Assembly: GCA_031402865.1 (NCBI GenBank) | Contig: JANNST010000052.1 | Span: 4,089-68,088 of the forward strand | DNA: 64,000 nucleotides | From: Chloracidobacterium sp. | GTDB taxonomy: Bacteria > Acidobacteriota > Blastocatellia > Pyrinomonadales > Pyrinomonadaceae | Direction: 5' to 3' | Shown here: positions 2,272 to 63,791 of the stretch, piece by piece | Layout: every line of letters starts with the position of its first letter | Position numbering within the stretch: position 1 is the stretch's first letter | The notes under the pieces: generated by a model | Told to the model about the DNA's origin: nothing | The model's input: the letters and a program-made list of their open reading frames with translations, nothing else | The model's database searches: none | Position numbers and translations under genes: made by a program

Positions 2272-2371
2272 GAAAGTCGAGAGTCGAGAGTCTAGTGTCG
2301 AGAGACGGATTTAAGAGCTTCGGAGATGTTCACTAGGTTCATCGACTTTTGACTCTTGACTCTCGACTTTC
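2272..2371. repeat. imperfect palindrome of GAGTCGAGAG-type units straddling the histidine-kinase stop codon
   Basis: Arms 2272-2301 and 2342-2371 are reverse complements (26/30 by my count). The right arm encodes the kinase tail [12 protein letters not shown]. The same unit recurs at 58504-58568 and as CTGACT tandems at 11985-12029. Confidence 0.8.
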
Positions 2372-4014
2372 TGACTAACGGGGAGAAGGATCGTGAATGT
2401 CGTACCTTTGCCTGGGTTCGAGCGAACGCTCAGACGGCCGCCGTGGTCGGTAATTATGCCGTAACAGACCGCCAGGCCGAGGCCTGTACCTTCGCCGACC
2501 TCTTTTGTCGTGAAGAAAGGCTCGAAGATCTTTGAAAGGTCTTCGGGCCGGATGCCGACCCCTGTATCTTCGACTTCGATCGCGACGCGGTTGAACTGCC
2601 CCGTGGCCCGGAATGTAAGCGTCCCGCCATCGGGCATGGCATCGATAGCATTTGTTCCGAGTGCAATAACCGCTTGCTGCAGTTGTCCGCCATCGGCATT
2701 GAGCAACGGAAGATCGTCTTCGGCTTCGATCTTTATCTGTATGTTTTCGCCGCGTTTTTGATGCGAGATAAGGTTTGCGGATGACTTCAATATTTCCGCA
2801 ACATCGAGCGGATGCCTGTCACCGGTACGGAGACGGCTGAAATCCAATAAGCCCGTTGTGATGGACTTACAGCGAAATGCCTCGCTCTTGATCAGGCCAA
2901 GATACTCGTTCAGGTCGTCCGAAGCCTCAGAGGCTTCAAATGCTCCCTCTTCGGCCCTTTTTTCTAGAGCTTCCGCACATGCGGCAATTGTCGCGAGCGG
3001 ATTGTTTATTTCATGTACAACGCCTGCAGCAAGCCTGCCGACGGCTGCCAGCTTTTCCGCCCGGCCGACCGCATGAATTGCTTCAACCCGAGCCGTGATG
3101 TCCTCGCCTACGGTAATAACATGGGTAACGTCGCCCGTCTCGTCATCCATCATCGGAACTTTGCTCACCATCCAGTGTTTCGTCGAACCGTCCTCGGCGG
3201 CAGTCTGTTGCTCGATCCTTTCAATTCTTCCGGTCCTAAAGGCACGCTCGAACTCTTCACGTACACGGCCCTCCGGATATCGAGCCAATACGTTAAAGAC
3301 ATTTCGGCCAAGTGCCGCATCGCGTGAGATGCCCTGCACACCTATTTCCCGATGCCTGTTCCAGGTTACGATCCGGAAATCGCGGTCCACCACATAAAGA
3401 GAAACGGGAAGAGCATCCAGGACGGCTTCCGTGAATCGGCGGTGTTCTTCCTTAGCACGATTGATTGAATTATTGATAGCTGCTTCATAGTGGGCGGATA
3501 AATTCACGCTCATTGCGGCCATCTGTGTAGCGGCCTCGATCATGCTGCCTTTGGCCTCGTTAAAATCGCGTTTTGCTGAAAATCCCACAACGATCGCCCC
3601 TTTTATCTCGCCATTGATATGGAGCGGGGCGACGTATTCGAGTTTGTGGCTGCTGCCATTCAATAGAAATGATTCTTCGTTCTCCTGCTTGTACCCGATC
3701 TGGGGAGGCAACAGTTCGAGCCATTTTTCAAACTTCGATTTGGAGAAGGACCGTGGGTCGATCTCGCCCCGGTCGTCGAATGCACAGCTCACGATCCCGA
3801 TATTTTCCAATTCGACAACAAATGCACACATCTCCGCCTCGACGCATTTCTGAATTGCACTGGCCACCCGGCTTGCGACTTTTTTGGGGTGAACAGTAAA
3901 AAGCAGGCTTCTTCCAAGGTCGGAAATGAATCTTAATTCTTGCGAAGAATCGGCCCTTTCAGTTATAGGCGAGAATATCCTGCTCTGTTTTTTTGCGGCA
4001 GACGGGAGTGGCAT
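2311..4014 (-). CDS. sensor histidine kinase with GAF-like and PAS domains (HisKA + HATPase_c)
   Basis: H-box [14 protein letters not shown] boxes ([24 protein letters not shown]) and a PAS-like segment ([18 protein letters not shown]). It lies directly upstream of the NtrC-type regulator. Confidence 0.88.
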
Positions 4015-11984: not shown

Positions 11985-12029
11985 GCTGACTATTGCTACT
12001 GACTACTGACTTCTGACCTCTGACTACCG
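11985..12029. repeat. tandem CTGACT(A/T)-type units
   Basis: gctgactattgctactgactactgacttctgacctctgactacc lies between pilT and the next gene. It is the complement of the GAGTC/AGTCAG units seen at 2272-2371. Confidence 0.7.
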
Positions 12030-14490: not shown

Positions 14491-14520
14491 CTTTTTGTGC
14501 TTTTTGTGCCTCTTTGCGGC
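14491..14520. repeat. half-copy of the TTTGTGC/TTTGCGGC repeat family
   Basis: ctttttgtgctttttgtgcctctttgcggc is the same unit as at 19471-19502 and 40857-40884. Confidence 0.7.
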
Positions 14521-15974: not shown

Positions 15975-15980
15975 TGTTTA

Positions 15981-16119
15981 AGAAGCGGGGGCAAGCCGCC
16001 CTTCCGAACCTGAAATCTGTGCAAGGTCGATTGATATATTTTACCTTGAAATCAACTTAAATATCTCGAAGTAAGTCTGGATAATTACAGGTTGGGAAGG
16101 GCGGCTTTGCCCCCGCTCT
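15981..16119. repeat. long-loop inverted repeat (AGAAGCGGGGGCAAGCCGCCCTTCC arms, about 90-nt loop)
   Basis: Arms 15981-16005 and 16096-16119 are reverse complements with 2 mismatches. The arm start AGAAGCGGG resembles the perfect palindrome at 42024-42086. Confidence 0.75.
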
Positions 16120-16124
16120 TTCGC

Positions 16125-18266: not shown

Positions 18267-19388
18267 TCATTTATCAACCATTATATTACCAAAGGCTAAA
18301 CGGCCGCCGTGCTTGCGAACAAACCCTCCACCCGGCAGTTCGACCAACCGGCCGCTTTTCGGGCTTAGAATCAAACGCTCGATCGATTCGATATGTTTTA
18401 GGCTGATAGAGCGGAGATCGCCGCGGTTTGTGCGTAACCAGGATCGGAGCGTCCGGTACAGCTGGGGTTCTGCGAGTAATTTCAGGTCTTTTATCATCAG
18501 ATCTTTTTGGCTGCCATCCGAGATTCCGCTTTCCGCCTTTCGCGTTACGTCTTCGAGGAGACCGGTCGCCACTGCTCCCGGTTCTGACTGGCGCATCAGA
18601 TCGGCTGTTCGAGCAAGCGTTTCTATTATCTTGGGGTTGAGGTCCGTCAGTACCGGTAACAGTATCTTGCGGACGCGGACACGTTTGAATGACAAATCCT
18701 CATTCATGGTGTCGTAACGGTATTCGACGCCGCATTCACGGCAGAAATTCTCCGTGTCCTTACGTCGCGCCCAGGTGAGGAGCGGGCGGATCAGTAGTTG
18801 AGGAGTGGAGGAGAAGGGGAGAAAGGGAGACGGGGAGATGGGGAGACGCGGAGACACGGAGTCATTGTCTTGTCTGATCTCCGCGTTCCCGTGTCTCCGC
18901 GTCTCCGTGTCACGCATTTCTCGCACCGGCCACATTCCGCTCAGCCCGTCGATGCCGCTGCCGCGAATTAGGTTAAGCAAGAAGGTTTCCGCCTGGTCAT
19001 TCATTGTATGAGCGGTCACAACGCCGTATGCTTTTAGGTTTTCGGCCGTGCGGGTAAGGAAATCGTACCTTGCATCACGGGCGTTCTGTTCGAGATTTCC
19101 TTCAGCCGGGATCGGGCCATGTCCGATCGCGAGTTCGAAGCCCCTTTCGGCCGTCAGATGCTTTATAAACTCCTCGTCGGCATCGCTCTCGTGTCCGCGA
19201 AGCTTGTGATTAAAGTGGGCGGCGACCAGCCGGAGTTTTAATTTATCGCGTTTGCGCAGATCGTCGAGAGCGAGCAAAAGGCTTGAGGAATCGGCACCGC
19301 CGGAGACCGCGACGATCAGTGTTTCGTCGGTAAACGGAAGCCCGAGCTTTCGCCACTCGGTGATCAGATCTCGGACAAACTTGTGCAT
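18267..19388 (-). CDS. tilS: tRNA(Ile)-lysidine synthetase, carrying in-frame repeat insertions
   Basis: PP-loop VAVSGGADSS, NHKLRG, HTMNDQAETFLLNLIRGSG, LIRPLL. The ORF stays intact across the repeats at 18555-18590 and 18798-18915. Confidence 0.9.
   Translation of the reverse strand: MHKFVRDLITEWRKLGLPFTDETLIVAVSGGADSSSLLLALDDLRKRDKLKLRLVAAHFNHKLRGHESDADEEFIKHLTAERGFELAIGHGPIPAEGNLEQNARDARYDFLTRTAENLKAYGVVTAHTMNDQAETFLLNLIRGSGIDGLSGMWPVREMRDTETRRHGNAEIRQDNDSVSPRLPISPSPFLPFSSTPQLLIRPLLTWARRKDTENFCRECGVEYRYDTMNEDLSFKRVRVRKILLPVLTDLNPKIIETLARTADLMRQSEPGAVATGLLEDVTRKAESGISDGSQKDLMIKDLKLLAEPQLYRTLRSWLRTNRGDLRSISLKHIESIERLILSPKSGRLVELPGGGFVRKHGGRLAFGNIMVDK
18555..18590. repeat. copy of the CCGGTCGC(C/T)ACTGCTCCCGGTTCTGACTG element inside tilS
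   Basis: 29 nt match 56598-56626 with one mismatch (my count). Translated in tilS as QSEPGAVATG. Confidence 0.8.
18798..18915. repeat. palindromic GGAGAC(G/A)C-octamer element inserted in frame in tilS
   Basis: Arms 18842-18861 and 18879-18911 include a 17-nt exact reverse complement (cgtgtctccgcgtctcc). The flanking GAGGAGTGGAGGAG also occurs at 63031-63044. Translated as MRDTETRRHGNAEIRQDNDSVSPRLPISPSPFLPFSSTPQ. Confidence 0.8.
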
Positions 19389-19420
19389 TTAAGAGATTAT
19401 AGCCGCAAGCCTGAATTAAT

Positions 19421-19502
19421 AGCCGCAAAAAGGCTCAAAAATCCCAAAAAAGATATTGAGTATATTTCTTACTTTTTGCGCTTTCTGTGCCTTTTTGCGG
19501 CT
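19421..19502. repeat. hairpin of the AGCCGCAAAAAGGC.CA.AAA family
   Basis: The left arm agccgcaaaaaggctcaaaaatcccaaaaaag pairs with the right arm actttttgcgctttctgtgcctttttgcggct. The last 2 nt overlap the argH stop codon. Confidence 0.8.
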
Positions 19503-20883
19503 ATTCCATTTTTTTCTTTGCAGCCAAAAGAGCTTCAGCAACGCGTTTGGGTGATGTTCCGCCGGTTTGGGATTTGCTGGCAAGGGTTTGTTCGAGGCTC
19601 AATGCGTTGAAAACATCAGCTTCGACTTGATCCGAGACCTTCGCTAGATCTTCGAGGCTCATTTGGTGCAGTTCTTTATTCTGTTCGATGGCAGAGAGCA
19701 CAATTCGGCCGACGGTGTCATGCGCGGTGCGGAACGGGACGCCTTTTTTTACGAGGTAATCGGCAAGCTCGGTAGCGTTAAGATAGCCGTTGACGGCGGC
19801 TTCTCGAGTTCTCGCTTCGTTTACGGTCAAATTGTTCAGCACAACAGCCGCGACATTCAGGCACATTCGCACCGTGTCTACCGTGTCGAAAACCGCTTCT
19901 TTGTCCTCCTGCGTGTCCTTGTTGTACGCCAGCGGCAGCCCTTTAAGTATTGCAAGCAAAGCGGTTTGATGGCCGAAGATGCGGCCGGCCTTGCCTCGCA
20001 AAAGCTCAAGCGCGTCTGGATTTTTCTTCTGCGGCATGAGGCTCGAACCGGTAGACACGGCGTCGCTGAGAGTAATAAAGCCGAACTCTGTCGTCGCGTA
20101 AATAATCAGGTCTTCGGCAAGCCGCGAAAGGTGTACCATTATGAGCGAACACGCCCCGACGAATTCGACGGCGAAATCTCGGTCCGAAACGGCGTCGAGA
20201 CTGTTTGCCGAAACGGCATCGAATCCGAGTTCGGCCGCAACGGCTTCGCGGTCGATATTGAAACTAGTTCCGGCAAGCGCGGCCGAGCCGAGCGGCAGAA
20301 TATTCATACGTCGCGCGGCGTCTGACAGTCGTTCGAGATCACGGGACAGCATTTCAAAGTACGCCAGACACCAATGGGTCCAAAGCACGGGCTGTGCACG
20401 CTGAAGGTGTGTGTAGCCGGGCAGGACTGCTTCCTTGTGGCGTTCGGCAGCGGCGATCAGTGCAGCCTGCATACCTTTCGCATCATTTCGAATGTGCTCA
20501 ATCTCGTCACGAAGCCAAAGGCGAAACGCCGTCGCAACCTGATCGTTGCGGCTGCGGCCCGTATGGACTTTTTTTCCGGTGTCGCCGATGAGCTCGACAA
20601 GTCTCGATTCGATAAACGAATGCACATCTTCCGCATCGGAATCCATATAGGCGGGATCGCCAGCGGCTAGTTCGAGTATTGTCCGCAACGCTCCTGTTAG
20701 GCCGGCGTTTTCGTCCTCAGTCAATATTCCCGCCCGCAAGAGTCCATTGGCATGAGCAATACTCGCGCGGACATCGGCGGTTAACAGCCGTTTATCAAAA
20801 CGAAAGGAATTGTTGAATTCTGCGAAGGTTTCATCCGGCTTCCCCGTGAATCTGCCGCCCCAAAGCTGATCGGATTTGTCCAT
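19501..20883 (-). CDS. argH: argininosuccinate lyase
   Basis: Fumarate-lyase signature GSSLMPQKKNPD, with full-length ArgH-like sequence (LWGGRF, TGRSRNDQVAT). Confidence 0.97.
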   Translation of the reverse strand: MDKSDQLWGGRFTGKPDETFAEFNNSFRFDKRLLTADVRASIAHANGLLRAGILTEDENAGLTGALRTILELAAGDPAYMDSDAEDVHSFIESRLVELIGDTGKKVHTGRSRNDQVATAFRLWLRDEIEHIRNDAKGMQAALIAAAERHKEAVLPGYTHLQRAQPVLWTHWCLAYFEMLSRDLERLSDAARRMNILPLGSAALAGTSFNIDREAVAAELGFDAVSANSLDAVSDRDFAVEFVGACSLIMVHLSRLAEDLIIYATTEFGFITLSDAVSTGSSLMPQKKNPDALELLRGKAGRIFGHQTALLAILKGLPLAYNKDTQEDKEAVFDTVDTVRMCLNVAAVVLNNLTVNEARTREAAVNGYLNATELADYLVKKGVPFRTAHDTVGRIVLSAIEQNKELHQMSLEDLAKVSDQVEADVFNALSLEQTLASKSQTGGTSPKRVAEALLAAKKKME

Positions 20884-20935
20884 TTGCGTTAATTGTAGAT
20901 TCGAAGCGGCGTCGTTGCCAACTTGTGTTTTTCTT

Positions 20936-20996
20936 CTTTGCTACTTTGCGTCTCTGCGGGAGAAGATTTTTCCCGCAAAGACGCAAAGCTGCAAAG
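20936..20996. repeat. hairpin of CTTTGC/GCAAAG-type units in the argH-argG divergent intergenic region
   Basis: ctttgctactttgcgtctctgcggga (20936-20961) is the near reverse complement of tcccgcaaagacgcaaagctgcaaag (20971-20996). Confidence 0.8.
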
Positions 20997-21059
20997 CAGA
21001 AGAGGCCGTTTGTCGAACAACTTGATTGATCGGGGAATTGCATTTAACCTATTTCGAGA

Positions 21060-24462: not shown

Positions 24463-24491
24463 TCGTTGAGCATAGCAGAAGGGAAATTTTA

Positions 24492-24657
24492 ACGCAGAGA
24501 CGCAGAGACGCAGAGACGCTGAGGAAGGAAGGATTAGCCACGGATGAACACAGATGGACACAGATGAATCTCGATATTTTCTGGTTTTCCTATCCGTGTT
24601 CATCCGTGTAAATCTGTGGATGAAATTCTTTTCTCTCTGCGTCTCCGCGTCTCGGCG
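24492..24657. repeat. nested palindrome: outer GCAGAGAC octamers, inner CACGGATGAACACAGATG arms
   Basis: The outer arm acgcagagacgcagagacgcagagacgctgag pairs with ctctctgcgtctccgcgtctcggcg. The inner arm ccacggatgaacacagatggacacagatg pairs with tatccgtgttcatccgtgtaaatctgtgg. Confidence 0.85.
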
Positions 24658-24667
24658 GTGAAAAATC

Positions 24668-25927
24668 CTATCCAAGATAACCGCGGAAGTTCGCCGGGAT
24701 CGCCGTGTACTTCGGAAAAAGCTTTGCAAGATCTTTTGTACCGAGGTGTTTGCTGGCAGCTTCGGCAAAGACATCTCGGAAGTCTGTTGTCAATGCCAGG
24801 TCGCGGCCTTCGTTTAGCTGGTCGGGTTTTAGGCCTTTCCAGTCGCCGTAGACCTTGCCGCCCTTTACGGAATTGCCTAGCACGAACATCGCGTTGGCGT
24901 GGCCGTGATCTGTGCCGCGTGATCCATTTTCGCGGGCCGTGCGGCCGAACTCTGACATTGTCAGCAGAACCACGTCGTCCATTCGCTGGCCAAGATCGGT
25001 TGCGAATGCGGCGATAGCGGCGCCGAAATCGCGAAGCAGGTTCGCAAGCTGGCCGCGGGCTCCGCCTTGGTTAACGTGCGTATCCCAGCCGCCAGCTTCG
25101 GCGAATGCTACTTCTAATCCCACACCCGCTTTTATCAACTGCGCGATCTGCATAAGCGAGCGGCCAAGCGGCGTTGTTGGATAGATCGCACCGTTCTCAG
25201 GCTTGTATTTTGCGGGGTTTGCCTGCTTCAAAAAATTGACCGCTTCGAACGTTTCCTTGCCCGTTTCACCCAGGCTGTCCTTTGTTGCCTGGCCGTAAAC
25301 GCCCTCGAAACCGCCCTGCACATTCTTTGTATAAACGCCGGCTTTGATGGCAAAATCGGCGAGGTTCGTCATCGCGATTGACGGTGAACGTCCGTATAGC
25401 GCTCGGGGCAGTTGCTGTGTCATGGCGACGGCGCGAAACGGCGAATCGTCTTTGCCGGACGTCGCCTGCATTGCCCGATTTAACCAGCCGTCACGTGTAC
25501 CCTTGAATCCTGGCGTGCCGGACTCCATATAATCCTGAGCGTCAAAATGCGAACGCGTGTTGTCGGGCGAACCGGCTGAATGAATAACGGCAAGCTGTTT
25601 CGCGGCCCAGAATTTTTCCAGCGGTTTGAGCGACGGATGCAGGCCGAAAAAGCCATCCAGATTCACGGCACCGTCAGTCTTATTGGGTGCGGGAATAGCA
25701 ATCGTGCGGCGGATATTGTAATACTCGCTGTCACCATGCGGAACAACCATATTCAGGCCATCGACCGCTCCGCGCTGGAATATCGTGACCAAAACCTTCT
25801 TTCTACCGTAACCGTTTTTAGTATCGGCCGCGTTTGCAAACTGGTGTAGAAAGTCCGGTGCGGCGGCCATCATGCCGAAACTTGCCAGTCCGATACCGCT
25901 CGTCTTTAGAAAAAATCTTCTGTCCAT
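24668..25927 (-). CDS. DUF1501 domain protein (sulfatase-like fold, Tat signal)
   Basis: Twin-arginine-type N-terminus MDRRFFLKTSGIGLASFG. SEFGRT..ENGS.GTDHGHAN is characteristic of DUF1501. Confidence 0.85.
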   Translation of the reverse strand: MDRRFFLKTSGIGLASFGMMAAAPDFLHQFANAADTKNGYGRKKVLVTIFQRGAVDGLNMVVPHGDSEYYNIRRTIAIPAPNKTDGAVNLDGFFGLHPSLKPLEKFWAAKQLAVIHSAGSPDNTRSHFDAQDYMESGTPGFKGTRDGWLNRAMQATSGKDDSPFRAVAMTQQLPRALYGRSPSIAMTNLADFAIKAGVYTKNVQGGFEGVYGQATKDSLGETGKETFEAVNFLKQANPAKYKPENGAIYPTTPLGRSLMQIAQLIKAGVGLEVAFAEAGGWDTHVNQGGARGQLANLLRDFGAAIAAFATDLGQRMDDVVLLTMSEFGRTARENGSRGTDHGHANAMFVLGNSVKGGKVYGDWKGLKPDQLNEGRDLALTTDFRDVFAEAASKHLGTKDLAKLFPKYTAIPANFRGYLG

Positions 25928-30500: not shown

Positions 30501-30648
30501 TCGCACCGGGAAAAGTGTGGCCATGGCCGCCGGTGCCGATGAACGGGTTGACGTGGCGGGTGTAGTCACGGGTTTGTCCCGCGACAGCAGGCGCTAGGCA
30601 TAGAAGAACTAAAACGCAGAGACGCTGAGACGCTGAGAGAACTTTCAT
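27523..30648 (-). CDS. GH92 family alpha-mannosidase with C-terminal F5/8 type C (discoidin) domain; in-frame repeat insertion
   Basis: NPFIGTGGHGHTFPGA, GFSHTHLSGTG, FSLWDTFRAAHPL and GNEPSHH are GH92 hallmarks. The C-terminal about 150 aa are discoidin-like. Confidence 0.9.
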   Translation of the reverse strand: MKVLSASQRLCVLVLLCLAPAVAGQTRDYTRHVNPFIGTGGHGHTFPGATMPFGMVQLSPDTRIDNWDGSSGYHYSDDIIYGFSHTHLSGTGIPDGCDILFMPTVGEPQFFAKEGDKSVNGYASKFSHANEKAEPGYYSVKLDDDGILAELTSTKRVGLHRYTFPRTDHANLILDLRWRDKWLQTDVSVNGAQRRIEGVRRSTSWAKNQTVYFVAEFSQLFTGGQIGNGLESTGLMGPSAQATSNGGLLSLQFQTVPEEPLLLKVAISYVSIEGARKNLAAELPHWDFDKVRADAKAAWNKELTKIEVSGGTNDQTTNFYTALYHTIIQPNVFNDVDGRYKGHDGKVHSLPGYEMQKAARVSSPTVRKGSPLLTAQHGSPPRPRNAATPPKTGGELQNHYTVFSLWDTFRAAHPLYTIIDQKRTVDFINTFIRIYEQGGRLPVWELWGEETDTMIGYHAASVIADAMAKSIKGFDYEKAYAAAKHSAELDHFGLAAYKKRGYISMEDENESVSRTLEYAYNDWCIAQMQASLTRSGDRNIEQLPPAFKDGDFRYRARHFENLFDTKTGFFRPKKNGVFVEPFAPNEVTFGFTEGNSWQYSFFVPHDVTRLMELMGGREKFVAKLDELFTTDQKLAGREQADLTGLIGQYAHGNEPSHHITYLYNYAGEPWKTQKYVRKIMDEFYKNAPDGLIGNEDCGQMSAWYILSAGGFYPVAPGSPVYALGTPLFPEMTYRLENGKTFTIRAKHVSPKNIYILNAKLNGSPYKKAFITHEELMRGGVLEFAMIDQPVETAFTEFPLSSIHGVATAVPVIDGERLFNDKTIVTMRKTNPDAMIFYTTDGSTPTRSSKTYFEPVVLRAAATVKAFTYFSPGNESPIVDAVFAKRPNDWTVKVVSGYSTQYTGGGDNAIIDGIRGTVNFASGEWQGVQGKPYDAIIDLKRETEIKELGGSFLQVAGPWIWMPDRIEFETSSDGTNFTKAAEIKPSFPRREMTPKIKEFTQTISPAKARYVRIRAYNFGKIPSWHPGAGGDPWIFVDEIIIR
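29458..29585. repeat. composite palindromic element in frame within the GH92 gene
   Basis: Contains perfect small hairpins cccctcc-tgtctta-ggagggg and ccgcg-ttt-cgcgg. The core matches 57091-57136 in reverse orientation. 29558-29584 is a degenerate look-alike of the RAYT-flanking REP. Confidence 0.7.
30614..30640. repeat. GCAGAGAC/GCTGAGAC octamer repeat inside the GH92 signal-peptide codons
   Basis: acgcagagacgctgagacgctgagaga is translated on the minus strand as LSASQRLCV within MKVLSASQRLCVLVLLCLAPAVAG. Confidence 0.75.
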
Positions 30649-30753: not shown

Positions 30754-33048
30754 CTAATGCACAAACTCGCCGCCGTAAGCCTGTCGTAAACCTTGGCCCT
30801 TAATGCCCCAGCGGAAGCGAAACGCCGCGTCGCCGCCGCGATGGTTGTAACGCAACGTCATCTTATGCAGCCCGGCCTTTAGCGGAACTATAGCGGAACG
30901 CACTTTTCGGTCTTTTGTACCTGAATCACCTATAATATCCCCGCCGCCGAGAGTGACCGCGGCATCCCAAGTCGAATCAACCTGAAACTCGTAAACTCCG
31001 TCGGTAGGAACACTAAAATAGCCGTCAAACGACACCGCAAACGGCCGCTTGAGAACATCCGGGGTCCGCGAAGCGAACTGCTGCAGACCAATGCTCTTTG
31101 TCTCGCCGCCTCGTATCGGCATCGAGCCGTCATCGGGCGGCATTGCAAAGGCGAATGTTACGCCGGGACGCTTCTCGCTTAATTGCATCGGTTCAAACAT
31201 TTTGCCGCGGACTATCGAAGCGGCGTAGACGGCACTTTTGCGGCCAGCCGGATTCACTACGACTGTTTTGAGCGTCTTTATGTCGAGAACACGGTCTGAA
31301 GCGCCTGTGCCGTTCAACGCGATTTCGATCGGTTTTGTATAGCTCTCCGACCTTTCATCGGGCGTAGATCCGTCGGTCGTGTAGTGGACGCGAGTTCCGG
31401 GAGCCGGCCGCAGTTCGACGGAAATCTTATCGCCCTCGGTAACCTTGTTTTGCAAGCCTCCGGGCTCCGGAATCCGATAATTTACATTCTGCTTATCCAG
31501 ACGCGGAAACTGAGTAGCGAGCCGGTTTGAAAAATCCTCGAAAGTACTGGCTCCCGCACGCGACCACAGAACTTCGGCCAAGGCGATCATACGCGGGAAC
31601 GACATGTATTCGACGTGCGAAGGCGTTTTTATATATTCGGTCCAGATGTTGGCCTGGCCGCCGATAACGTATTTGGCTTCGTCCGCTGTGAGTTCGGGTG
31701 GGACAGGATCGAAGCTGTAAACCTTTTCAAGCGGGACGTAACTGCCGATGTTGAGCGGTTCGTAGGCAGGGTCGCCTTGGCCATAGTCGAGATAGACGTA
31801 ATCGGTCGGCGTCATTATCACGTCATGTTTGGACTTCGCTGCTTCGATGCCGCCTTTCATCCCTCGCCATGACATTACCGTAGCGTTCGGAGCAAGGCCG
31901 CCTTCGAGAATTTCATCCCATCCGATAATCTTTTTGCCTTTCGAATTGATGTACTTTTCGATGCGGCGGACAAAATAGCTCTGCACCTCATGCTCGTCCT
32001 TTAGGTTCTCTTTCTTTTTGAGTTCCTGCACAAAGGCCGATTCCTTCCAATGATCCTTCAGTACTTCATCGCCGCCGATGTGGATGTAGGGCGAATCGGG
32101 GAACAAGGCTATCGTTTCGTCGAGCACGTCTTCGAGAAATTTAAAGGTCGCCTCTGTCGGGCAATAGACCTCCTTGAAAATTCCCCATGTCGTCTGCACC
32201 TTGTATTGATAATCCGCTTTGCAGCCAAATTGCGGGTATGCAGCCAAAGCGGCTGAGGCGTGGCCAGGCAATTCGATCTCCGGAATCACGGTGATAAACC
32301 TTGCCTTTGCGTATTTGACGACATCCTTTATCTCGTCCTGCGTGTAAAAACCGCCGTGCGGGATGCCGTCGCCGATGTATGGGGTTAGGTTACGCTCCTT
32401 AACCGACTCGGGGCGTTTTGAGCCGATTTCGGTCAGCTTCGGATATTTTTTGATCTCGATCCGCCAGCCCTGATCTTCGGTCAAATGCCAGTGAAACGTG
32501 TTGAATTTGTACTGCGACATGAGGTCGATGAACTTTTTGACGAATGAGACGGGCATGAAATGCCGTGCTACATCGAGATGCATGCCACGATATTTGAATC
32601 GCGGTAAATCGCTGATAGCGGTGTACGGAAGCTCGATGCGGCCTGAATATTTGACGGAAATTATCTGAATAAACGATTGAAGGCCGTAGAACAAACCACG
32701 CTGATTGCCCGAGATTCGGATCGCATTCGCGTCTATCTGTATCTCATAGTCTTCAGCGTCCGCAGATTTGCCGACAACCGTGTCGAAAACTATTGCGTCC
32801 TTCGCCGGACGTTTTTTTACGACCGCCAGTTTGAACCCGTAATTTTTCGACAGGAAATCGTTTAAGATCGCTGCCGTTTCTCGGCTAGCTGTATCGGTTG
32901 CCGCGATCTTTGTCTTATCGCTAAAAATAAAACTCCCGCGTCCGTATTCGATCGAAACCGGTTTCGGAATGATATTGATCTCAACGGGCTGGGCGAAGGC
33001 AAAACCGGAGAATGCTAGCACAAGAATGAAGGATGTATATGTTTTCAT
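30754..33048 (-). CDS. GH20 beta-N-acetylhexosaminidase with C-terminal PA14-like domain
   Basis: GMHLDVARHF, FHWHLTEDQGWR and HIGGDE (catalytic D-E) are present. The start was trimmed to MKTYTSFILVLAFSGFAFA because the first 7 track codons lie in the repeat at 33059. Confidence 0.9.
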   Translation of the reverse strand: MKTYTSFILVLAFSGFAFAQPVEINIIPKPVSIEYGRGSFIFSDKTKIAATDTASRETAAILNDFLSKNYGFKLAVVKKRPAKDAIVFDTVVGKSADAEDYEIQIDANAIRISGNQRGLFYGLQSFIQIISVKYSGRIELPYTAISDLPRFKYRGMHLDVARHFMPVSFVKKFIDLMSQYKFNTFHWHLTEDQGWRIEIKKYPKLTEIGSKRPESVKERNLTPYIGDGIPHGGFYTQDEIKDVVKYAKARFITVIPEIELPGHASAALAAYPQFGCKADYQYKVQTTWGIFKEVYCPTEATFKFLEDVLDETIALFPDSPYIHIGGDEVLKDHWKESAFVQELKKKENLKDEHEVQSYFVRRIEKYINSKGKKIIGWDEILEGGLAPNATVMSWRGMKGGIEAAKSKHDVIMTPTDYVYLDYGQGDPAYEPLNIGSYVPLEKVYSFDPVPPELTADEAKYVIGGQANIWTEYIKTPSHVEYMSFPRMIALAEVLWSRAGASTFEDFSNRLATQFPRLDKQNVNYRIPEPGGLQNKVTEGDKISVELRPAPGTRVHYTTDGSTPDERSESYTKPIEIALNGTGASDRVLDIKTLKTVVVNPAGRKSAVYAASIVRGKMFEPMQLSEKRPGVTFAFAMPPDDGSMPIRGGETKSIGLQQFASRTPDVLKRPFAVSFDGYFSVPTDGVYEFQVDSTWDAAVTLGGGDIIGDSGTKDRKVRSAIVPLKAGLHKMTLRYNHRGGDAAFRFRWGIKGQGLRQAYGGEFVH

Positions 33049-33058
33049 AGTAGCGAAA

Positions 33059-33201
33059 GGCGGAAACACGACTGGTAGGGAGTGTGTTCTTCAAGATTCG
33101 ACGAAAGAGGCCCAGTCGCTACGAATTCCGGCTACGACACGGAAATCCTTTCCCGCTCGCTGACGCCGGGAAACACACTTCCTACCGGTCGTGTTTCCGC
33201 C
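33059..33201. repeat. GGCGGAAACAC hairpin element, copy 1 (long loop)
   Basis: The left arm is 33059-88. The right arm 33174-33201 reads CACACTTCCTACCGGTCGTGTTTCCGCC. The 83-nt interior contains agtcgctacgaattccggctacgac. Confidence 0.85.
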
Positions 33202-33211
33202 TGTGCGTTCT

Positions 33212-34312
33212 CTACAAACCGATTATATCCAAAAACCGTTTTAGTTCATCCGGCAGCGGCAGGACAAACGCTAATTGCTCTTTTGTAACGGGATGTGTGA
33301 ACGAAAGCTTTTCTGCATGCAGGAAAAAACGGCCCATTATTCGGATCGCATTCTTTACGTCTATGTTCGCGACCGTGTTGTCACGGCCTTCGTTATAGGT
33401 TTCGTCACCCACTACGGGGTGATTGATCGACGCAAGATGGACACGAATCTGGTGCGTGCGGCCGGTTTTTATCTCGACCTCGACAAGTGCGAATTTATCG
33501 AACCGCTTGCGGACCTTCCACAATGAAAGGGCGTTTCGGCCATTTGCGGCGACTGTCATTTTGGTGCGGTGCCAGCGGTCGCGGGCCATCGGCCGGTCGA
33601 TGATGCCCGTGTTGTCACGCGGACTTCCGTGAACGAGGGCGAGGTAGCTCTTATAAACCTCGCGCGTACGGAACAGCTCGGACATCGCTTCGTGTATCTC
33701 CTCGCTTTTGGCGACAACGATGAGGCCGGAGGTTTGTTTATCTAAACGGTGGACGATGCCGACGCGACTTGTATTGGTTGCAGAAGCCTGCACGTTAGTA
33801 AGGGCGATATGCTCAACGTTGGCGGTATCGCCCTTACTTCGTGCGGGCTTCTGCGGCAGAACCTCGTCACCTGCTGACGCAGTTGTTTCTGACCTTACAG
33901 GCTGCATCCCGCTAACGCCGAAATGGTAGGCGATTGCGTTTGCCAATGTGCCCGAACTAACGCCGGCACCCGGATGAACGACCAATCCGGCCGGTTTGTT
34001 GATAACGGCAAGATATTCGTCTTCAAAAACAATTTCGAGCGGGATATTTTCGGGCTCGAACCGGGCGGGCGGGGCTTCGGCAAGGTCTACGTCGATGTCA
34101 TCATTTTCGCGCAGTTTATACGATGGTTTTGCCGTCGCCTGGTTAACCAGAACGTCGCCGTCTTCAATCAAACGCTGAAGACGAGACCGCGACCAGCCTT
34201 CGATGTTCTCCGCTAGAAAGGCATCAAGGCGCTTTCCTACTTCAGAACCGGTAATTGCGAAATTTAGTATCGGATTTTCGTCAGGCGATGGCGGTGTGTT
34301 AGCTGGGTTCAA
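33212..34312 (-). CDS. rluD: 23S rRNA pseudouridine synthase (RluD/RluA family), carrying an in-frame REPIN-like insertion
   Basis: S4-like N-terminus (RLDAFL...SRSRLQRLI), catalytic GIVHRLDKQTSGL, and HQIRVH. Confidence 0.9.
   Translation of the reverse strand: MNPANTPPSPDENPILNFAITGSEVGKRLDAFLAENIEGWSRSRLQRLIEDGDVLVNQATAKPSYKLRENDDIDVDLAEAPPARFEPENIPLEIVFEDEYLAVINKPAGLVVHPGAGVSSGTLANAIAYHFGVSGMQPVRSETTASAGDEVLPQKPARSKGDTANVEHIALTNVQASATNTSRVGIVHRLDKQTSGLIVVAKSEEIHEAMSELFRTREVYKSYLALVHGSPRDNTGIIDRPMARDRWHRTKMTVAANGRNALSLWKVRKRFDKFALVEVEIKTGRTHQIRVHLASINHPVVGDETYNEGRDNTVANIDVKNAIRIMGRFFLHAEKLSFTHPVTKEQLAFVLPLPDELKRFLDIIGL
33780..33854. repeat. 75-nt REPIN-like inverted doublet of the RAYT-associated REP, inside rluD
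   Basis: The reverse complement of the right half contains AAGCCCGCACGAAGTAAGGGCGATA, 25/25 identical to the repeat at 26879-26903. The left half is a diverged direct copy. Confidence 0.85.
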
Positions 34313-35111: not shown

Positions 35112-35130
35112 GGTTTCGATAAGCAATGAA

Positions 35131-35219
35131 GGCGGAAACACGAGCCGTAGCGAGTGTGTTCTTCGTCAGGCCGGGTTATTCGTCATTCAGACACACTCCC
35201 TACCGGTCGTGTTTCCGCC
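35131..35219. repeat. GGCGGAAACAC hairpin element, copy 2
   Basis: The left arm is 35131-35160. The right arm 35192-35219 reads CACACTCCCTACCGGTCGTGTTTCCGCC. The loop is 30 nt and contains the lspA stop codon. Confidence 0.85.
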
Positions 35220-35707
35220 TGCTTTTGTTTGCTCAGGAACATATCTATTATCATTAATCCGGCACCCATAACAATCGCCATGTCGGCGACATTGAATGTC
35301 GGGTAGTGCCATGAGCCGAACTGAACATCGATAAAATCGACGACATACCCGAGCCTGATCCGGTCCGTAACGTTCCCGGCGATTCCAGCAAGGAGCAATG
35401 CGAGCGCACCCAAAATACGATCATCGCTGCGCGGAGTTCTCCAAAAGAAATAGAGTACGAGCGCACCGGCGATAAACGCAACTACCGATAATCCCCAGCG
35501 GCCCGCGTCGCCGTGGTCGTCTAACATGCTGAACGCCACGCCCGTATTTTGAGCGTAGGCAAAATTCAAAAAACCTGAAATGAGAGGTATGTCTTCGCCA
35601 AAACGCAGCCGACGCACCGCCCACGCCTTGCTCGCCTGATCGATCATAAAAACCCCGCCGGCAATGGCGAGGTATGCTATTTTCCAAAGAATATCTTTTT
35701 TATTCAC
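35183..35707 (-). CDS. lspA: lipoprotein signal peptidase II
   Basis: LspA motifs N.G.AF and VVDFIDV....PTFNVAD. The last 11 codons ([11 protein letters not shown]) are encoded by the repeat arm. Confidence 0.9.
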   Translation of the reverse strand: MNKKDILWKIAYLAIAGGVFMIDQASKAWAVRRLRFGEDIPLISGFLNFAYAQNTGVAFSMLDDHGDAGRWGLSVVAFIAGALVLYFFWRTPRSDDRILGALALLLAGIAGNVTDRIRLGYVVDFIDVQFGSWHYPTFNVADMAIVMGAGLMIIDMFLSKQKQAETRPVGSVSE

Positions 35708-40319: not shown

Positions 40320-40338
40320 AAAGTTGATGGCATTAAAA

Positions 40339-40408
40339 GGCGGAAACCCGCACGGTAGCAAGGGTGTGATCTTAAAGAGGCACACTCCCTACCGGTCGTG
40401 TTTCCGCC
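40339..40408. repeat. GGCGGAAACAC hairpin element, copy 3 (short loop)
   Basis: The right arm 40381-40408 is identical (28/28) to 35192-35219. The left arm 40339-40368 is more diverged. Confidence 0.85.
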
Positions 40409-40468
40409 TTCGGAGCCAAGGTCCGTGTCAAACTCTAAATTTTATCATCTATCGGAGGAAAAATCCCG

Positions 40469-40815: not shown

Positions 40816-40884
40816 AGCCGCAGAGATGCGCAAAAAGCACAAATATGAAGAGAAATTTTGTGCCTTTTGTGCCTTTTTGCGGCT
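40816..40884. repeat. hairpin of the AGCCGCA.A.A.GC.CAAAA family
   Basis: agccgcagagatgcgcaaaaagcacaaa pairs with tttgtgccttttgtgcctttttgcggct. Same family as 19421-19502 and 14491-14520. Confidence 0.8.
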
Positions 40885-42007: not shown

Positions 42008-42023
42008 AATAATAAATTTACCT

Positions 42024-42086
42024 CGTTTAGAAGCGGGCTTGCCCGCTGTAAGATAATTGACGCCCGGGCAAGCCCGCTTCTAAACG
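42024..42086. repeat. perfect 22-bp inverted repeat CGTTTAGAAGCGGGCTTGCCCG
   Basis: 42024-42045 and 42065-42086 are exact reverse complements. It lies between the GH63-like stop and the dehydrogenase start. Confidence 0.85.
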
Positions 42087-42119
42087 GCGGATCTTTTTTT
42101 CAAAGGTTTCTCAAAAATG

Positions 42120-56591: not shown

Positions 56592-56626
56592 AGGAGGCCG
56601 GTCGCTACTGCTCCCGGTTCTGACTG
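56592..56626. repeat. CCGGTCGCTACTGCTCCCGGTTCTGACTG element at the 3' end of the DUF3010-like gene
   Basis: Matches 18555-18590. It provides the last codons LLSQNREQ and the stop of the 56605-57033 ORF. Confidence 0.8.
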
Positions 56627-57033
56627 AGGAGGCAGTAGGCGGCTCCGTAGGCTTCGTGCTGGAATTTGGCGATCGGCAGTTCCGTGAATTCGATATTGGC
56701 GGCTGACACGGCCTTGCGGATGGTCGCGGGCGGGATTAGGATGACGTCTTGACGGCAGGTTTGAATAAGCCCTTCGAGTTTGAAGGTGATCGTGCCGCCT
56801 TTCATTCGGCCCTTCGAAAGACGCTCGCGTATGCCGACTTGCTCAATGCCGTTGTCGTCGAAGAACGCCTGGATGGCTGCCTGATATTCCCGAACTTCGC
56901 TCTGGCTTTTGGGATCGGCAAGAACTAGCCGCAGGACGCCGGTCGGGATCACCTCAAACCTCCCGGCGTGCCCATCCAGTACAACGAAACGGGCTTCGTT
57001 CTTATCGAGGTCGATTCCGCAAATTCTTGACAT
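56605..57033 (-). CDS. DUF3010-like protein (tentative)
   Basis: 142 aa. The N-terminus MSRICGIDLDKNEARFVVLDG resembles DUF3010 as I remember it. No catalytic motifs identified. Confidence 0.45.
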   Translation of the reverse strand: MSRICGIDLDKNEARFVVLDGHAGRFEVIPTGVLRLVLADPKSQSEVREYQAAIQAFFDDNGIEQVGIRERLSKGRMKGGTITFKLEGLIQTCRQDVILIPPATIRKAVSAANIEFTELPIAKFQHEAYGAAYCLLSQNREQ

Positions 57034-58303: not shown

Positions 58304-58327
58304 CTGCAAAGACGCGAAGACGCAAAG
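58304..58327. repeat. GCAAAGAC/GCGAAGAC octamer units
   Basis: ctgcaaagacgcgaagacgcaaag lies just after the M50 stop. Related to 20971-20996. Confidence 0.65.
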
Positions 58328-58503: not shown

Positions 58504-58568
58504 AGTCGAGAGTGGAGAGTCAAGAGTCTTGAGTCGGACGTTCTGCCCAAGACTCACGACTCTCGACT
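58504..58568. repeat. GAGTCGAGAG-family palindrome upstream of cdaA
   Basis: agtcgagagtggagagtcaagagtcttgagtc pairs with gactcacgactctcgact. Confidence 0.75.
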
Positions 58569-58576
58569 CAACAAAA

Positions 58577-62195: not shown

Positions 62196-63791
62196 ATGAT
62201 AATCGCATTTATGGAGAAATTTTTCGACCGGTTGGACGCACTTGCGGGAATTGAATCGGTGAACCCGATAGTTAAATGGCTTGAGCGCATTGCGTTTGTA
62301 TTTCTCACGTTGATGCTCGTTTCGGCGCCGCATTCCATCGCGGCTACGCAGACGGCCTGGATTACGGGAATGTTTGTCTGGATCGTCAGGCTGTTTTTCA
62401 AGCCGCGAGTGAGTTTTAAGTTCGGGGCTCTGGACGCTGCACTTTGGGGATTATTCGGGTGGTCGGTGATATCCTCACTCGTTTCTTACGACCCTGCGAC
62501 CTCGATCGATAAGCTTCGCGGCGTTGCTCTTTTTCTGATCGTCTATTTCGTAATCTACAACCTGAGAAATCTTCGGGCGGTGTATTTCGCGGCGTTCATT
62601 CTGATATTTTCGTGCATGGTAAATGTCGTTTGGACGCCGGTACAGCGTTTGATCGGCCGCGGTGTCGAGATTCACGGTCTGAGGACCGACAGCCCGCTCG
62701 CAAAAGCCCTGCTACGGGAAGCCGACGCTCTGCTGGCAGCCGACGGAATAAAGCTGCACACACCCGAAGATGTCGCGGCTCATATTGAAGAACACGAAGT
62801 CACAAAGATCAAATTCTACCGGCCTGATTACGAGTTTTCAGTCGATGTAAAAAAGGCAGATATTTTGCCCGGAGCATCCGCGATGGAAAAACTCGGAATC
62901 GAAAGCTGGAAAAAGAGCCGCAACTGGCGGTCAAGCGGTTTTTACGGCCATTACGTAACCTATGCCGAGGTGTTGCAGCTTATCGCGTCGCTTGCTTTTG
63001 GGTTGCTGATCGCGGGCTTATTGCGGAGTCGAGGAGTGGAGGAGGAAAGGAGTGGAGGCGTCCAGAACCTTTCGAATCGTTCCTCTTTATCCCTCCACTC
63101 CTTCACTCCTTTACTCGTCATAGTTGTCCTCGCTATGGCCTTTGCCCTTCTGCTAACTGTCACACGGGCGCCGCAACTTGCCTTTGTGATCTCGGCCGCT
63201 GTGATCGTGATTATTGGGCTCGGGAGAAAATGGGTCTTTCGAGCAGCGGTTATCGGACTGCCGGTCGTGATCATCGGCCTGCTGTTTTTGCAGCAAAGCC
63301 GTCAGGTCGGCTTTTTTGATACCAACGACGATTCAATACGCTGGCGCCAGACCGTCTGGCGCGAGGGGTTTGAGCTTTGGACGAAAGAGCCGCGCCATTT
63401 CGTGTTCGGAGTCGGCATGGATTCGATCAAGAAATACGCGAAGGAATGGCATCTGTTCGACGACGGGCGATTGAACATGGGCCATTTTCATTCGACGCCG
63501 CTGCAGCTTTTAGTTGAAAGAGGTTTGCCGGCTTTGCTCATCTGGCTGATAGTTTTGGGAATTTACGCACGAACGTTGTGGAAAGGGCTGAAGGTTAGCG
63601 GCGATTGGCGTTCACGCGGCATTCTACTCGGCTGTCTCGGCGGCACGATCGGTTTTTTTGCGAGCAGCTTGGTTCACTACAACCTGGGCGACCAGGAGGT
63701 TGCGATGGTATTTTTTATACTCATGGGCTTTGGCCTCAAAGTCAGCGAAATGGGCAAGAACGAAGATGGTGAGAAGTTATCAGCTATCTGA
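62196..63791 (+). CDS. O-antigen ligase (Wzy_C) family membrane protein with a soluble insert and an in-frame repeat insertion
   Basis: Multiple TM helices. The Wzy_C-like region is WRQTVWREGFELW...GVGMDS...HFHSTPLQLLVERGLPALL. An alternative ATG lies at 62211. Confidence 0.72.
   Translation: MIIAFMEKFFDRLDALAGIESVNPIVKWLERIAFVFLTLMLVSAPHSIAATQTAWITGMFVWIVRLFFKPRVSFKFGALDAALWGLFGWSVISSLVSYDPATSIDKLRGVALFLIVYFVIYNLRNLRAVYFAAFILIFSCMVNVVWTPVQRLIGRGVEIHGLRTDSPLAKALLREADALLAADGIKLHTPEDVAAHIEEHEVTKIKFYRPDYEFSVDVKKADILPGASAMEKLGIESWKKSRNWRSSGFYGHYVTYAEVLQLIASLAFGLLIAGLLRSRGVEEERSGGVQNLSNRSSLSLHSFTPLLVIVVLAMAFALLLTVTRAPQLAFVISAAVIVIIGLGRKWVFRAAVIGLPVVIIGLLFLQQSRQVGFFDTNDDSIRWRQTVWREGFELWTKEPRHFVFGVGMDSIKKYAKEWHLFDDGRLNMGHFHSTPLQLLVERGLPALLIWLIVLGIYARTLWKGLKVSGDWRSRGILLGCLGGTIGFFASSLVHYNLGDQEVAMVFFILMGFGLKVSEMGKNEDGEKLSAI
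63031..63110. repeat. GGAGTGGAGG-type palindrome in frame within the O-antigen-ligase-like gene
   Basis: gaggagtggaggaggaaaggagtggagg (63031-63058) pairs with cctctttatccctccactccttcactcct (63082-63110). Translated as RGVEEERSGGVQNLSNRSSLSLHSFTP. Confidence 0.75.

Follow-up and report, generated by a model that had tools for sequence, protein, structure and literature searches.

Rickettsia palindromic elements (RPEs) are the best-known case of "selfish" palindromes that lie in frame in housekeeping genes (Ogata et al. 2000, 2002), as outlined in a review (PMC10969869) that also cites a paper on the RPE palindromes of Rickettsia genes under a title calling them "unique but recurrent". Intragenic copies are likewise on record for miniature inverted-repeat transposable elements, or MITEs, such as the enterobacterial ERIC and RU elements (PMC2759123) and the QMITEs of Coxiella (PMC5896051; reviewed in PMC2229807 and PMC3184786). 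Here, we present an analysis of a palindrome built of tandem octamers with the core GGAGAC that lies inside tilS, the essential gene for the tRNA-modifying enzyme tRNA(Ile)-lysidine synthetase, in a 64,000-nucleotide (nt) stretch (referred to as the window; G+C content, 51.7%) of contig JANNST010000052.1 from Chloracidobacterium sp., a member of the Pyrinomonadaceae (phylum Acidobacteriota, class Blastocatellia). We consider it probable that the tilS segment is tolerated and translated selfish or repeat DNA, i.e., an in-frame palindromic element in a permissive surface loop. By analogy, the element would be closest in behavior to RPEs and intragenic MITEs and closest in architecture to the hairpins of the short tandemly repeated repetitive sequences (STRRs) of cyanobacteria, heptamer arrays that, together with small dispersed repeats, were reportedly described by Vioque in 1997 and Elhai in 2008. 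The literature covered, which was incomplete, yielded RPE, MITE, heptamer, and repetitive extragenic palindrome (REP) precedents only and no description of GGAGAC-octamer palindromes; the one paper that matched the octamer strings concerned archaea and was unrelated.

An initial annotation of the window had proposed that a repeat hairpin and an unrelated second repeat lie in an intact tilS gene with the reading frame preserved. Our analyses agree with this proposal in that the open reading frame (ORF) is intact and conserved and contains the Pfam domains of the enzyme.

Positions 18267..19388, minus strand: tilS, tRNA(Ile)-lysidine synthetase, intact ORF of 373 amino acids (aa), host of both repeats

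The PP-loop domain (PF01171) was identified at residues 24-241 with an E value of 1.8e-40 and the TilS substrate-binding domain (PF09179) with an E value of 1.9e-07. The protein, the sequence of which includes LIRGSGIDGLSGMWPVREMRDTETRRHGNAEIRQDNDSVSPRLPISPSPFLPFSSTPQLLIRPLL, matched 3a2k, 1wy5, and 1ni5 in phmmer. In an alignment of the window TilS with 39 orthologues, 90 columns are invariant, and the SGGADS PP-loop motif (S29-G-G-A-D-S34) is the same in all 40 sequences. An AlphaFold2 model generated with the 40 orthologues as input has a mean predicted local distance difference test (pLDDT) score of 81.5, and its top Foldseek matches are the TilS crystal structures 3a2k, 2e21, 1wy5, and 1ni5 (E values of 7e-19 to 1e-16). 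By their source names, the closest relatives of the protein are tRNA lysidine(34) synthetases of Pyrinomonadaceae, among which the gene order argH-tilS-ftsH-folP is conserved, and an identical protein is already recorded on a 105-kb NCBI contig. Judged from these comparisons, the gene codes for TilS, for which lysidine-forming activity on tRNA-Ile2 is predicted.

The octamer palindrome is about 120 nt long and consists of the following parts.

Positions 18798..18918, minus strand: composite octamer-repeat palindrome, coding for residues ~158-197 (MRDTETRRHGNAEIRQDNDSVSPRLPISPSPFLPFSSTPQ)
Positions 18878..18918, minus strand: N-side arm, coding sense GACACGGAGACGCGGAGACACGGGAACGCGGAGA, encoding RDTETRRHGNAE
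Positions 18862..18877, minus strand: spacer or loop of 16 nt between the arms, part of GAGTCATTGTCTTGTCTGATCTC
Positions 18800..18861, minus strand: C-side arm, encoding SVSPRLPISPSPFLPFSSTPQ
Positions 18842..18859, no strand: perfect 18-nt inverted repeat GGAGACGCGGAGACACGG, left copy, partner at 18889-18906
Positions 18889..18906, no strand: right copy of this repeat, partner at 18842-18859

On the plus strand, tandem octamers of the type GGAGNNNN run through 18798-18918 in the order GGAGTGGA GGAGAAGG GGAGAAAG GGAGACGG GGAGATGG GGAGACGC GGAGACAC GGAG, such that the C-side arm grades from GGAGTGGA/GGAGAAGG to GGAGACGC, and beyond the spacer follows the complementary run of TCTCCGCG-type units. 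The arms had been credited with an exact inverted repeat of 17 nt; the exact repeat is there, its length is 18 nt, and it lies within imperfect arms of 41 nt (18814-18854 and 18878-18918) that are 73% complementary. Tandem Repeats Finder (TRF) detected a period of 8 in both arms (18810-18861 and 18878-18911). With up to three mismatches, the 18-mer occurs four times in the window (0.10 expected). The string GAGGAGTGGAGGAG, previously taken as a separate flank that recurs at 63031, does have two exact occurrences, at 18800 and 63031 (0 expected), and is the outer end of the octamer array, translated as SPFLPFSST, rather than a separate flank. The mRNA strand folds with a minimum free energy of -47.1 kcal/mol (z score of -4.80) and the DNA plus strand with -30 kcal/mol (z score of -5.74); in both cases, none of 200 shuffled sequences reached an energy as low. 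As read from the sequence, stop codons are excluded from every frame of GGAGACNN arms as long as NN is not TA, and the peptides that they encode are charged and hydrophilic (D/T/E/R/G), Gly-rich, and Ser/Pro-rich. Rfam returned nothing at the gathering threshold except one tRNA and, thus, no family for the tilS element; its sub-threshold matches to eukaryotic microRNA hairpins were treated as noise. An intein or a group I/II intron was rejected based on Pfam, which detected only the two TilS domains, and on the lack of an Rfam family at the gathering threshold.

Relative to solved TilS structures, residues 156-197 of the window protein align to a gap: between the flanking blocks, the Geobacillus enzyme (3a2k) has 7 residues and the enzymes of Aquifex (1wy5) and E. 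coli (1ni5) have 0. The two expectations of the initial annotation, that the window protein has about 40 extra residues here and that E. coli TilS has fewer than ten, thus proved correct. Insert-free orthologues have 8-10 residues where the window TilS has 42, and the net insertion would, by alignment, amount to about 34-42 aa. In the TilS model, the only long segments of low confidence (pLDDT < 50) are residues 162-193, i.e., the octamer insert, and residues 271-293, i.e., the second repeat, and both are predicted to form disordered surface loops.

In the 40-sequence alignment, which gave inserts in most orthologues and none in three, P0105, P0111, and P0120 have 8-10 residues between R156 and L199, compared with 18-44 in all other sequences; the site is bounded by the invariant residues R156 and L199/R201/P202. 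In a neighbor-joining tree built without the variable regions, the root of which is uncertain, the three short forms group with the insert-bearing P0115 and are nested in a larger insert-bearing set. Because of this nesting, one old gain and later loss is favored, that is, a single insertion in an ancestor of most sampled Pyrinomonadaceae TilS, followed by loss in some lineages. Beyond what the initial annotation had suggested, the insertion would then be old, common to most of these enzymes, and remodeled rather than newly acquired.

The DNA of eight orthologous loci (from ENA, JGI, NCBI, and Logan assemblies) points the same way. All inserts of these orthologues are built of octamers, lie at one and the same site, and fold with -30 to -66 kcal/mol; relatives thus have a segment of similar length, as could have spoken against a repeat insertion, but in them, too, it consists of octamer palindromes, and it is missing from some orthologues. 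Wherever the insert is present, its C-side arm is homologous and can be aligned (...TCTCCGCGTCTCC...CTCCCCTTCTCCTCCACTCC), while the N-side arm occurs in three nonhomologous types that are interleaved among close relatives.

N-side arm type GGAGTGRA: encodes RSEGVEEW
N-side arm type GGAGACRC: encodes RDTETRRHG, the type of the window
N-side arm type GGGAGARC: the third type

In a control in which each half of the palindrome was shuffled separately, thereby keeping the purine/pyrimidine asymmetry, the hairpin was better than the half-shuffles in the window and in loci L002, L004, L008, and L009, was marginally better in L007, and was no better in L001 and L010. Thus, the palindrome is undergoing reshaping and in places decaying, and a universally conserved hairpin was ruled out because L001 and L010 were at chance. 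Taken at the level of DNA, the comparison indicates that the insert is remodeled by gain or loss of octamers and by replacement or partial deletion of an arm. Between the empty L005 and the filled alleles, no target-site duplication was visible at tilS, the alleles being too diverged to define the ends. As a side observation, the housekeeping genes argG, folP, argH, and PPK2 are each split into two or three gene calls in L004 and L008 (long contigs of ENA ERZ25039524), which suggests assembly frameshift errors and not biology.

Pairwise differences at the three codon positions, compared in a small sample of seven sequences, distinguish the parts of the insert.

Fifty codons on each side of the insert: differences at positions 1/2/3 of 0.09 / 0.03-0.05 / 0.46-0.49
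Inner nine codons of the conserved arm (VSPRLPISP): 0.31 / 0.25 / 0.26
Outer nine codons (SPFLPFSST): 0.15 / 0.06 / 0.26

On these values, the flanks have the signature of a constrained protein, consistent with strong purifying selection on the enzyme core; the inner arm has no codon-position bias and no visible amino acid constraint; and the outer nine codons are coding-like and appear to be under protein-level constraint. Consistently, the SP(F/L)LPFS motif is recognizable down to an overall identity of ~57%. This pattern is suggestive of an insert that is mainly a passenger, apart from a stub beside the strand of residues 198-200 that became constrained.

The element type recurs within the window and far beyond it. 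One sister element lies in frame in another gene of the window.

Positions 63025..63119, plus strand: GGAGTGGA-type octamer palindrome in frame in a Wzy_C/O-antigen-ligase-family gene (62196..63791)

The window gene shares this insert with its two closest orthologues (P0122 and P0123), and it is absent in P0124, which is 80% identical, and in ten others (P0127-P0136); in further orthologues, the same loop is occupied by octamer palindromes of other kinds. Between the empty L131 and the filled alleles (the window, L132, and L133), no target-site duplication was visible at this site either, and again the alleles are too diverged to define the ends.

Using the pattern GGAGACNNGGAGAC-N(10-40)-GTCTCCNNGTCTCC and one genome per species, a scan of genomes returned at least 120 stretches with a GGAGAC-octamer palindrome, whereas well under one is expected by chance, as estimated from the size of the collection; the count is a lower bound, and the matches listed are not a random sample. 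Among the matches listed, 48 are from Chloroflexota, 35 from Planctomycetota, 27 from Acidobacteriota, and 10 from others according to their record labels, the last including Verrucomicrobia, Gemmatimonadota, Parachlamydiaceae, Sumerlaeota, one cyanobacterium, Chitinispirillaceae, Binatia, and two bins labeled Betaproteobacteria. Copies at different loci of one genome have common loop sequences, which implies copying. A stop-free frame of at least 300 nt on both sides surrounds 33 of the 100 usable copies among the matches listed, compared with 56% of random positions taken from the same loci. Ten in-frame copies were checked using Pfam, and all lie in real genes with the element between or inside domains; the hosts are UvrA (twice), Mfd, PriA, MutS2 (twice), a PBP/SpoIID protein, a PSD1 protein, CobN, and a BatA/VWA protein. 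The in-ORF candidate L117, which looks like a spurious high-GC frame, was excluded from this check. Except for the arms themselves, the idea that the elements are preadapted by being stop-free was set aside: 80% of their six frames are open compared with 71% in random segments of the same length, which lends it little support. Six IMG/VR contigs (viral or proviral; L134-L139) have GGAGAC-octamer palindromes, two of them with two copies each, and point to no clear vector. Separately, in the Chloroflexota metagenome-assembled genome GL137 (loci L013, L027, L034, L053, L060, L063, L064, L091, L098, L108, and L113), the palindromes are compound: one arm includes a second conserved module (CCCCAGCGAGCGNAGCGAGCGAT...), and loops of at least two families are found repeatedly and in either orientation.

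With these data, the octamer element can be set against its precedents. Similarly to RPEs, it belongs to a class of dispersed hairpin-forming repeats of roughly 100-150 bp, a large share of which lie in frame in unrelated housekeeping genes and are read through (as judged here from open frames), and the extra residues are presumably accommodated by the fold. In contrast to the fixed consensus of RPEs, the arms of the tilS element are tandem octamers in variable number; it occurs in free-living bacteria of soil and water that represent several phyla rather than in an intracellular alphaproteobacterium; the copy in tilS is ancient and has been remodeled; and the octamer elements have no conserved peptide family beyond what the octamers dictate. 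We therefore liken the element to RPEs by behavior and not by sequence: it would work like an RPE without being filed as one. With MITEs, it shares the small size, the nonautonomous inverted-repeat structure, and a mostly intergenic location with occasional in-frame fusion to an ORF; however, its arms are internally repetitive, no target-site duplication was seen in the diverged empty and filled alleles, and, with no search aimed at them, neither a parent transposase nor terminal inverted repeats that match a known insertion sequence were identified. The similarity to STRRs lies in arrays of a short oligomer and its complement that form long hairpins; the differences are the period of 8 instead of 7 detected by TRF, another core sequence, a distribution mainly in Chloroflexota, Planctomycetota, and Acidobacteriota among the matches listed, and a location inside protein-coding sequence that, based on the frame, is translated. 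With its period of 8, the tilS element was rejected as an STRR of tandem heptamers; palindromes of the heptamer AGTCGAG occur elsewhere in the window.

Altogether, we suggest that a palindromic repeat of a noncoding type, in which 8-nt units (GGAGNNNN, with the core GGAGAC) and the complementary units flank a short spacer, came to lie in frame at a surface loop of TilS that is permissive, and that the ribosome reads through it to add ~40 mostly disordered residues. There would have been one entry, in the Pyrinomonadaceae ancestor, after which slippage and arm remodeling would have dominated. The element would persist through harmlessness, with survivors being multiples of three and lying in loops, and the outermost ~9 codons, SPFLPFSST, would later have come under protein-level constraint. 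Copies may spread by copying or by slippage and template switching, and the second repeat, a ~30-nt REP-like unit, would be tolerated likewise in the inter-domain linker.

Several observations weigh against this scenario. We met neither a transposase, the neighborhoods of the copies not having been searched for one, nor a recent pair of empty and filled alleles; together with the lack of a target-site duplication, this means that mobility of the tilS copy is deduced only indirectly. The argument for copying in the octamer superfamily is based on loops common to different loci within genomes and does not extend to the tilS copy, the 23-nt loop string of which has 0 exact matches in the metagenome collection. 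Translation of the insert is read from the open frame. The conserved arm has diverged about half as much as flanking third positions, and SPFLPFSST is kept clade-wide, so that the insert is not simply neutral; the slow divergence of the arm leaves room for nucleotide-level constraint or concerted evolution. Finally, 5 of 7 orthologues retain the hairpin even under the strict half-shuffle control, which could mean structural selection and not history.

A first alternative, which we regard as unlikely, is that the palindrome grew in place by slippage of a native motif combined with intrastrand template switching and that the similarity across genomes is convergent. Octamer number and flavor vary between orthologues at a single site, the tilS loop is unique, neither a target-site duplication nor a transposase was seen, and many different 7-9-mers build similar arrays in the window, all as expected for such growth; however, convergence sits poorly with an identical 14-mer and its complement in another gene, with at least 120 occurrences of the identical GGAGAC core, for which the expectation is well below one, and with the many same-loop copies at different loci of other genomes, which imply copying. 

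A second alternative is that the hairpin is a functional cis-element, for instance, for RNase III or other processing, ribosome pausing, stability, or protein binding, and that the peptide is a by-product. The strength of the hairpin (z scores of -4.8 for RNA and -5.7 for DNA), the arms that differ and yet are complementary in the window, L002, L004, L008, and L009 under the half-shuffle control, and an arm divergence of 0.22-0.31 at all codon positions, lower than the 0.46-0.49 of flanking third positions, are in line with this idea. Nevertheless, we find it rather improbable, because the hairpins of L001 and L010 are at half-shuffle level, the element is missing from three orthologues and from all solved TilS, it matches no Rfam family, and elements of the same type are found in several phyla, both between genes and within unrelated ones, which fits a generic repeat better than a regulator specific to tilS.

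More doubtful still is that the extra residues are a lineage-specific functional loop, for example, for tRNA or partner binding, to which the palindromy is incidental or secondary. Conservation of SP(F/L)LPFS down to ~57% identity, the coding-like pattern of its nine codons (0.15/0.06/0.26), and the position between the invariant R156 and L199/R201/P202 would agree with a loop under selection for function. By contrast, the other ~30 residues are hypervariable in sequence and in length (18-44 aa), lack a codon-position bias, and are predicted to be disordered; moreover, the octamers recur in noncoding DNA and in another gene, and insert-free orthologues exist. To an assembly or sequencing artifact or a tilS pseudogene, we give next to no credence: although the assembly is of the metagenome type and palindromes and tandem repeats are error-prone, the identical protein is known from the 105-kb NCBI contig, homologous inserts are present in independent ENA, JGI, NCBI, and Logan assemblies, and the frame is open with all catalytic motifs intact and flanks under purifying selection.

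Returning to the translated repeat as the preferred explanation, what is new here is translated palindromes in free-living soil bacteria that have tandem-octamer arms and are shared by distant phyla. More tentatively, and with the balance for now tilting against it, we raise the idea that GGAGAC-octamer palindromes are an undescribed self-propagating superfamily in Chloroflexota, Planctomycetota, Acidobacteriota, and at least 7 more lineages, routinely settling in frame in essential and DNA-repair genes, partly domesticable as in the case of SPFLPFSST, and supplying disordered loops at scale. Such a superfamily would be a free-living, cross-phylum counterpart of the protein-coding palindromes of Rickettsia. 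If the preferred explanation holds, many loops in annotations and protein family alignments of these phyla would be repeat derived and could be mistaken for lineage-specific domains, and the copies would amount to a natural experiment in the tolerance, and occasional recruitment, of random disordered insertions by proteins. It would also raise the question of what spreads an identical 6-8-nt core through unrelated phyla. A comparable case is that of the direct TAACTGA heptamer repeats of Beggiatoaceae, Cyanobacteria, and Bacteroidetes (PMC4679880), in which an identical short oligomer likewise occurs in distant phyla without a known transfer mechanism and coding potential sets the tolerated sites; however, those repeats are direct, contain stop codons, and are kept out of genes, whereas the GGAGAC arrays are inverted, stop-free, and often genic.

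The second repeat in tilS belongs to a different family, represented by two copies in the window.

Positions 18558..18591, minus strand: REP-like unit of ~30 nt, lone copy in tilS, consensus (g)AcCCGGTCGCTACCGCTCCCGGTTCTGAC, translated as QSEPGAVATG
Positions 56594..56627, plus strand: other copy in the window, overlapping a DUF3010 gene (56605..57033, minus strand) at its 3' end

The match of 28 of 29 positions reported initially holds for the inner 29 nt, and so does the translation QSEPGAVATG, which is read in the ORF; the extent is corrected to 34 nt, of which 31 are identical and 3 mismatched. At 56594-56640, the copy provides the last codons and the stop codon of the DUF3010 gene and is followed by a partial inverted partner (GGAGGCAGTAGGCG). 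The unit is at the same place of tilS in L001, L002, and L007 and is intergenic after ftsH in L004. Scanning metagenomes for GGTCGCYACYGCTCCCGGTTCTGAC returned at least 139 copies in at least 120 stretches, with sharp boundaries around ~30 nt; in metagenomes from soil, the unit is abundant. As had been proposed for both tilS segments, the octamer element and this unit are dispersed repeats, with copies in the window, in relatives, and in at least 120 genome stretches and at least 120 metagenome stretches, respectively. The census of coding locations that had been recommended for both cores gave, alongside the 33 of 100 octamer copies described above, only 6 of 99 usable REP-like copies in long open frames, among the matches listed, compared with 39% of random positions. 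Several copies are arranged as inverted +/- pairs at distances of 45-80 nt, and the consensus shows no visible stem beyond the 4 bp of CCGG/CCGG.

In these respects, the second repeat resembles REP elements and their paired forms, REPINs (PMC3116915, PMC3733652, and PMC3333891), which are short, sharply bounded, present in very many copies, biased toward noncoding DNA, and arranged in inverted pairs; it differs in its weak internal stem and in having GTAG inside the unit and not at its end, and the tilS copy is a lone unit in a coding region. From this comparison, the repeat behaves like a REP/REPIN-type element, and the tilS copy would be a rare coding resident. The inter-domain linker that contains it is variable among TilS orthologues (15-67 residues; alignment columns 301-400) and often has several REP-like units in either orientation, and many orthologues have no unit. 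In the linkers of P0010, P0020, P0024, and P0089, translations of the unit are repeated in both orientations (SEPRAVATG, PPASAGG, and AIAPGSD).

The window contains many intergenic palindromes of tandem 7-9-mers. Next to the host gene, in the spacer between the start of tilS (19388) and the end of argH (19501), a palindrome at 19418-19505 has 33-nt arms that are 88% complementary (AATAGCCGCAAAAAGG...), and the related arrays TTTTGTGCC/TTTTGCGGC are found at 14491-14516 and 40856-40877. Arrays of GCAGAGAC, GCAAAGAC, and GCTGAGAC, one base off the tilS unit GCGGAGAC, lie at 24482-24668, 20931-21001, 30614-30638, and 58306-58327; most of them are intergenic palindromes, and the one at 24482-24668 nests a palindrome of three CACAGATGAA units. 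Tandem-heptamer arms (AGTCGAG/GACTCTT) make up the palindromes at 2272-2371 and 58504-58570, the former covering the last ~20 codons and the stop codon of the ORF at 2311..4014. Three inverted pairs of AAGGCGGAAACACGACCGGTAGGGAGTGTGT and its complement, a family unrelated to the octamer elements, are located at gene boundaries (33041-33219, 35125-35225, and 40337-40410). Long GC-rich intergenic palindromes lie at 15980-16120 and 42011-42099 (GAAGCGGGGGCAAGCCGCCC... and AGAAGCGGGCTTGCCCG...), the latter terminator-like with a T run next to it. At 11986-12027, the heptamer CTGACTA is present in six direct copies, without an inverted partner, between two ORFs on the same strand.

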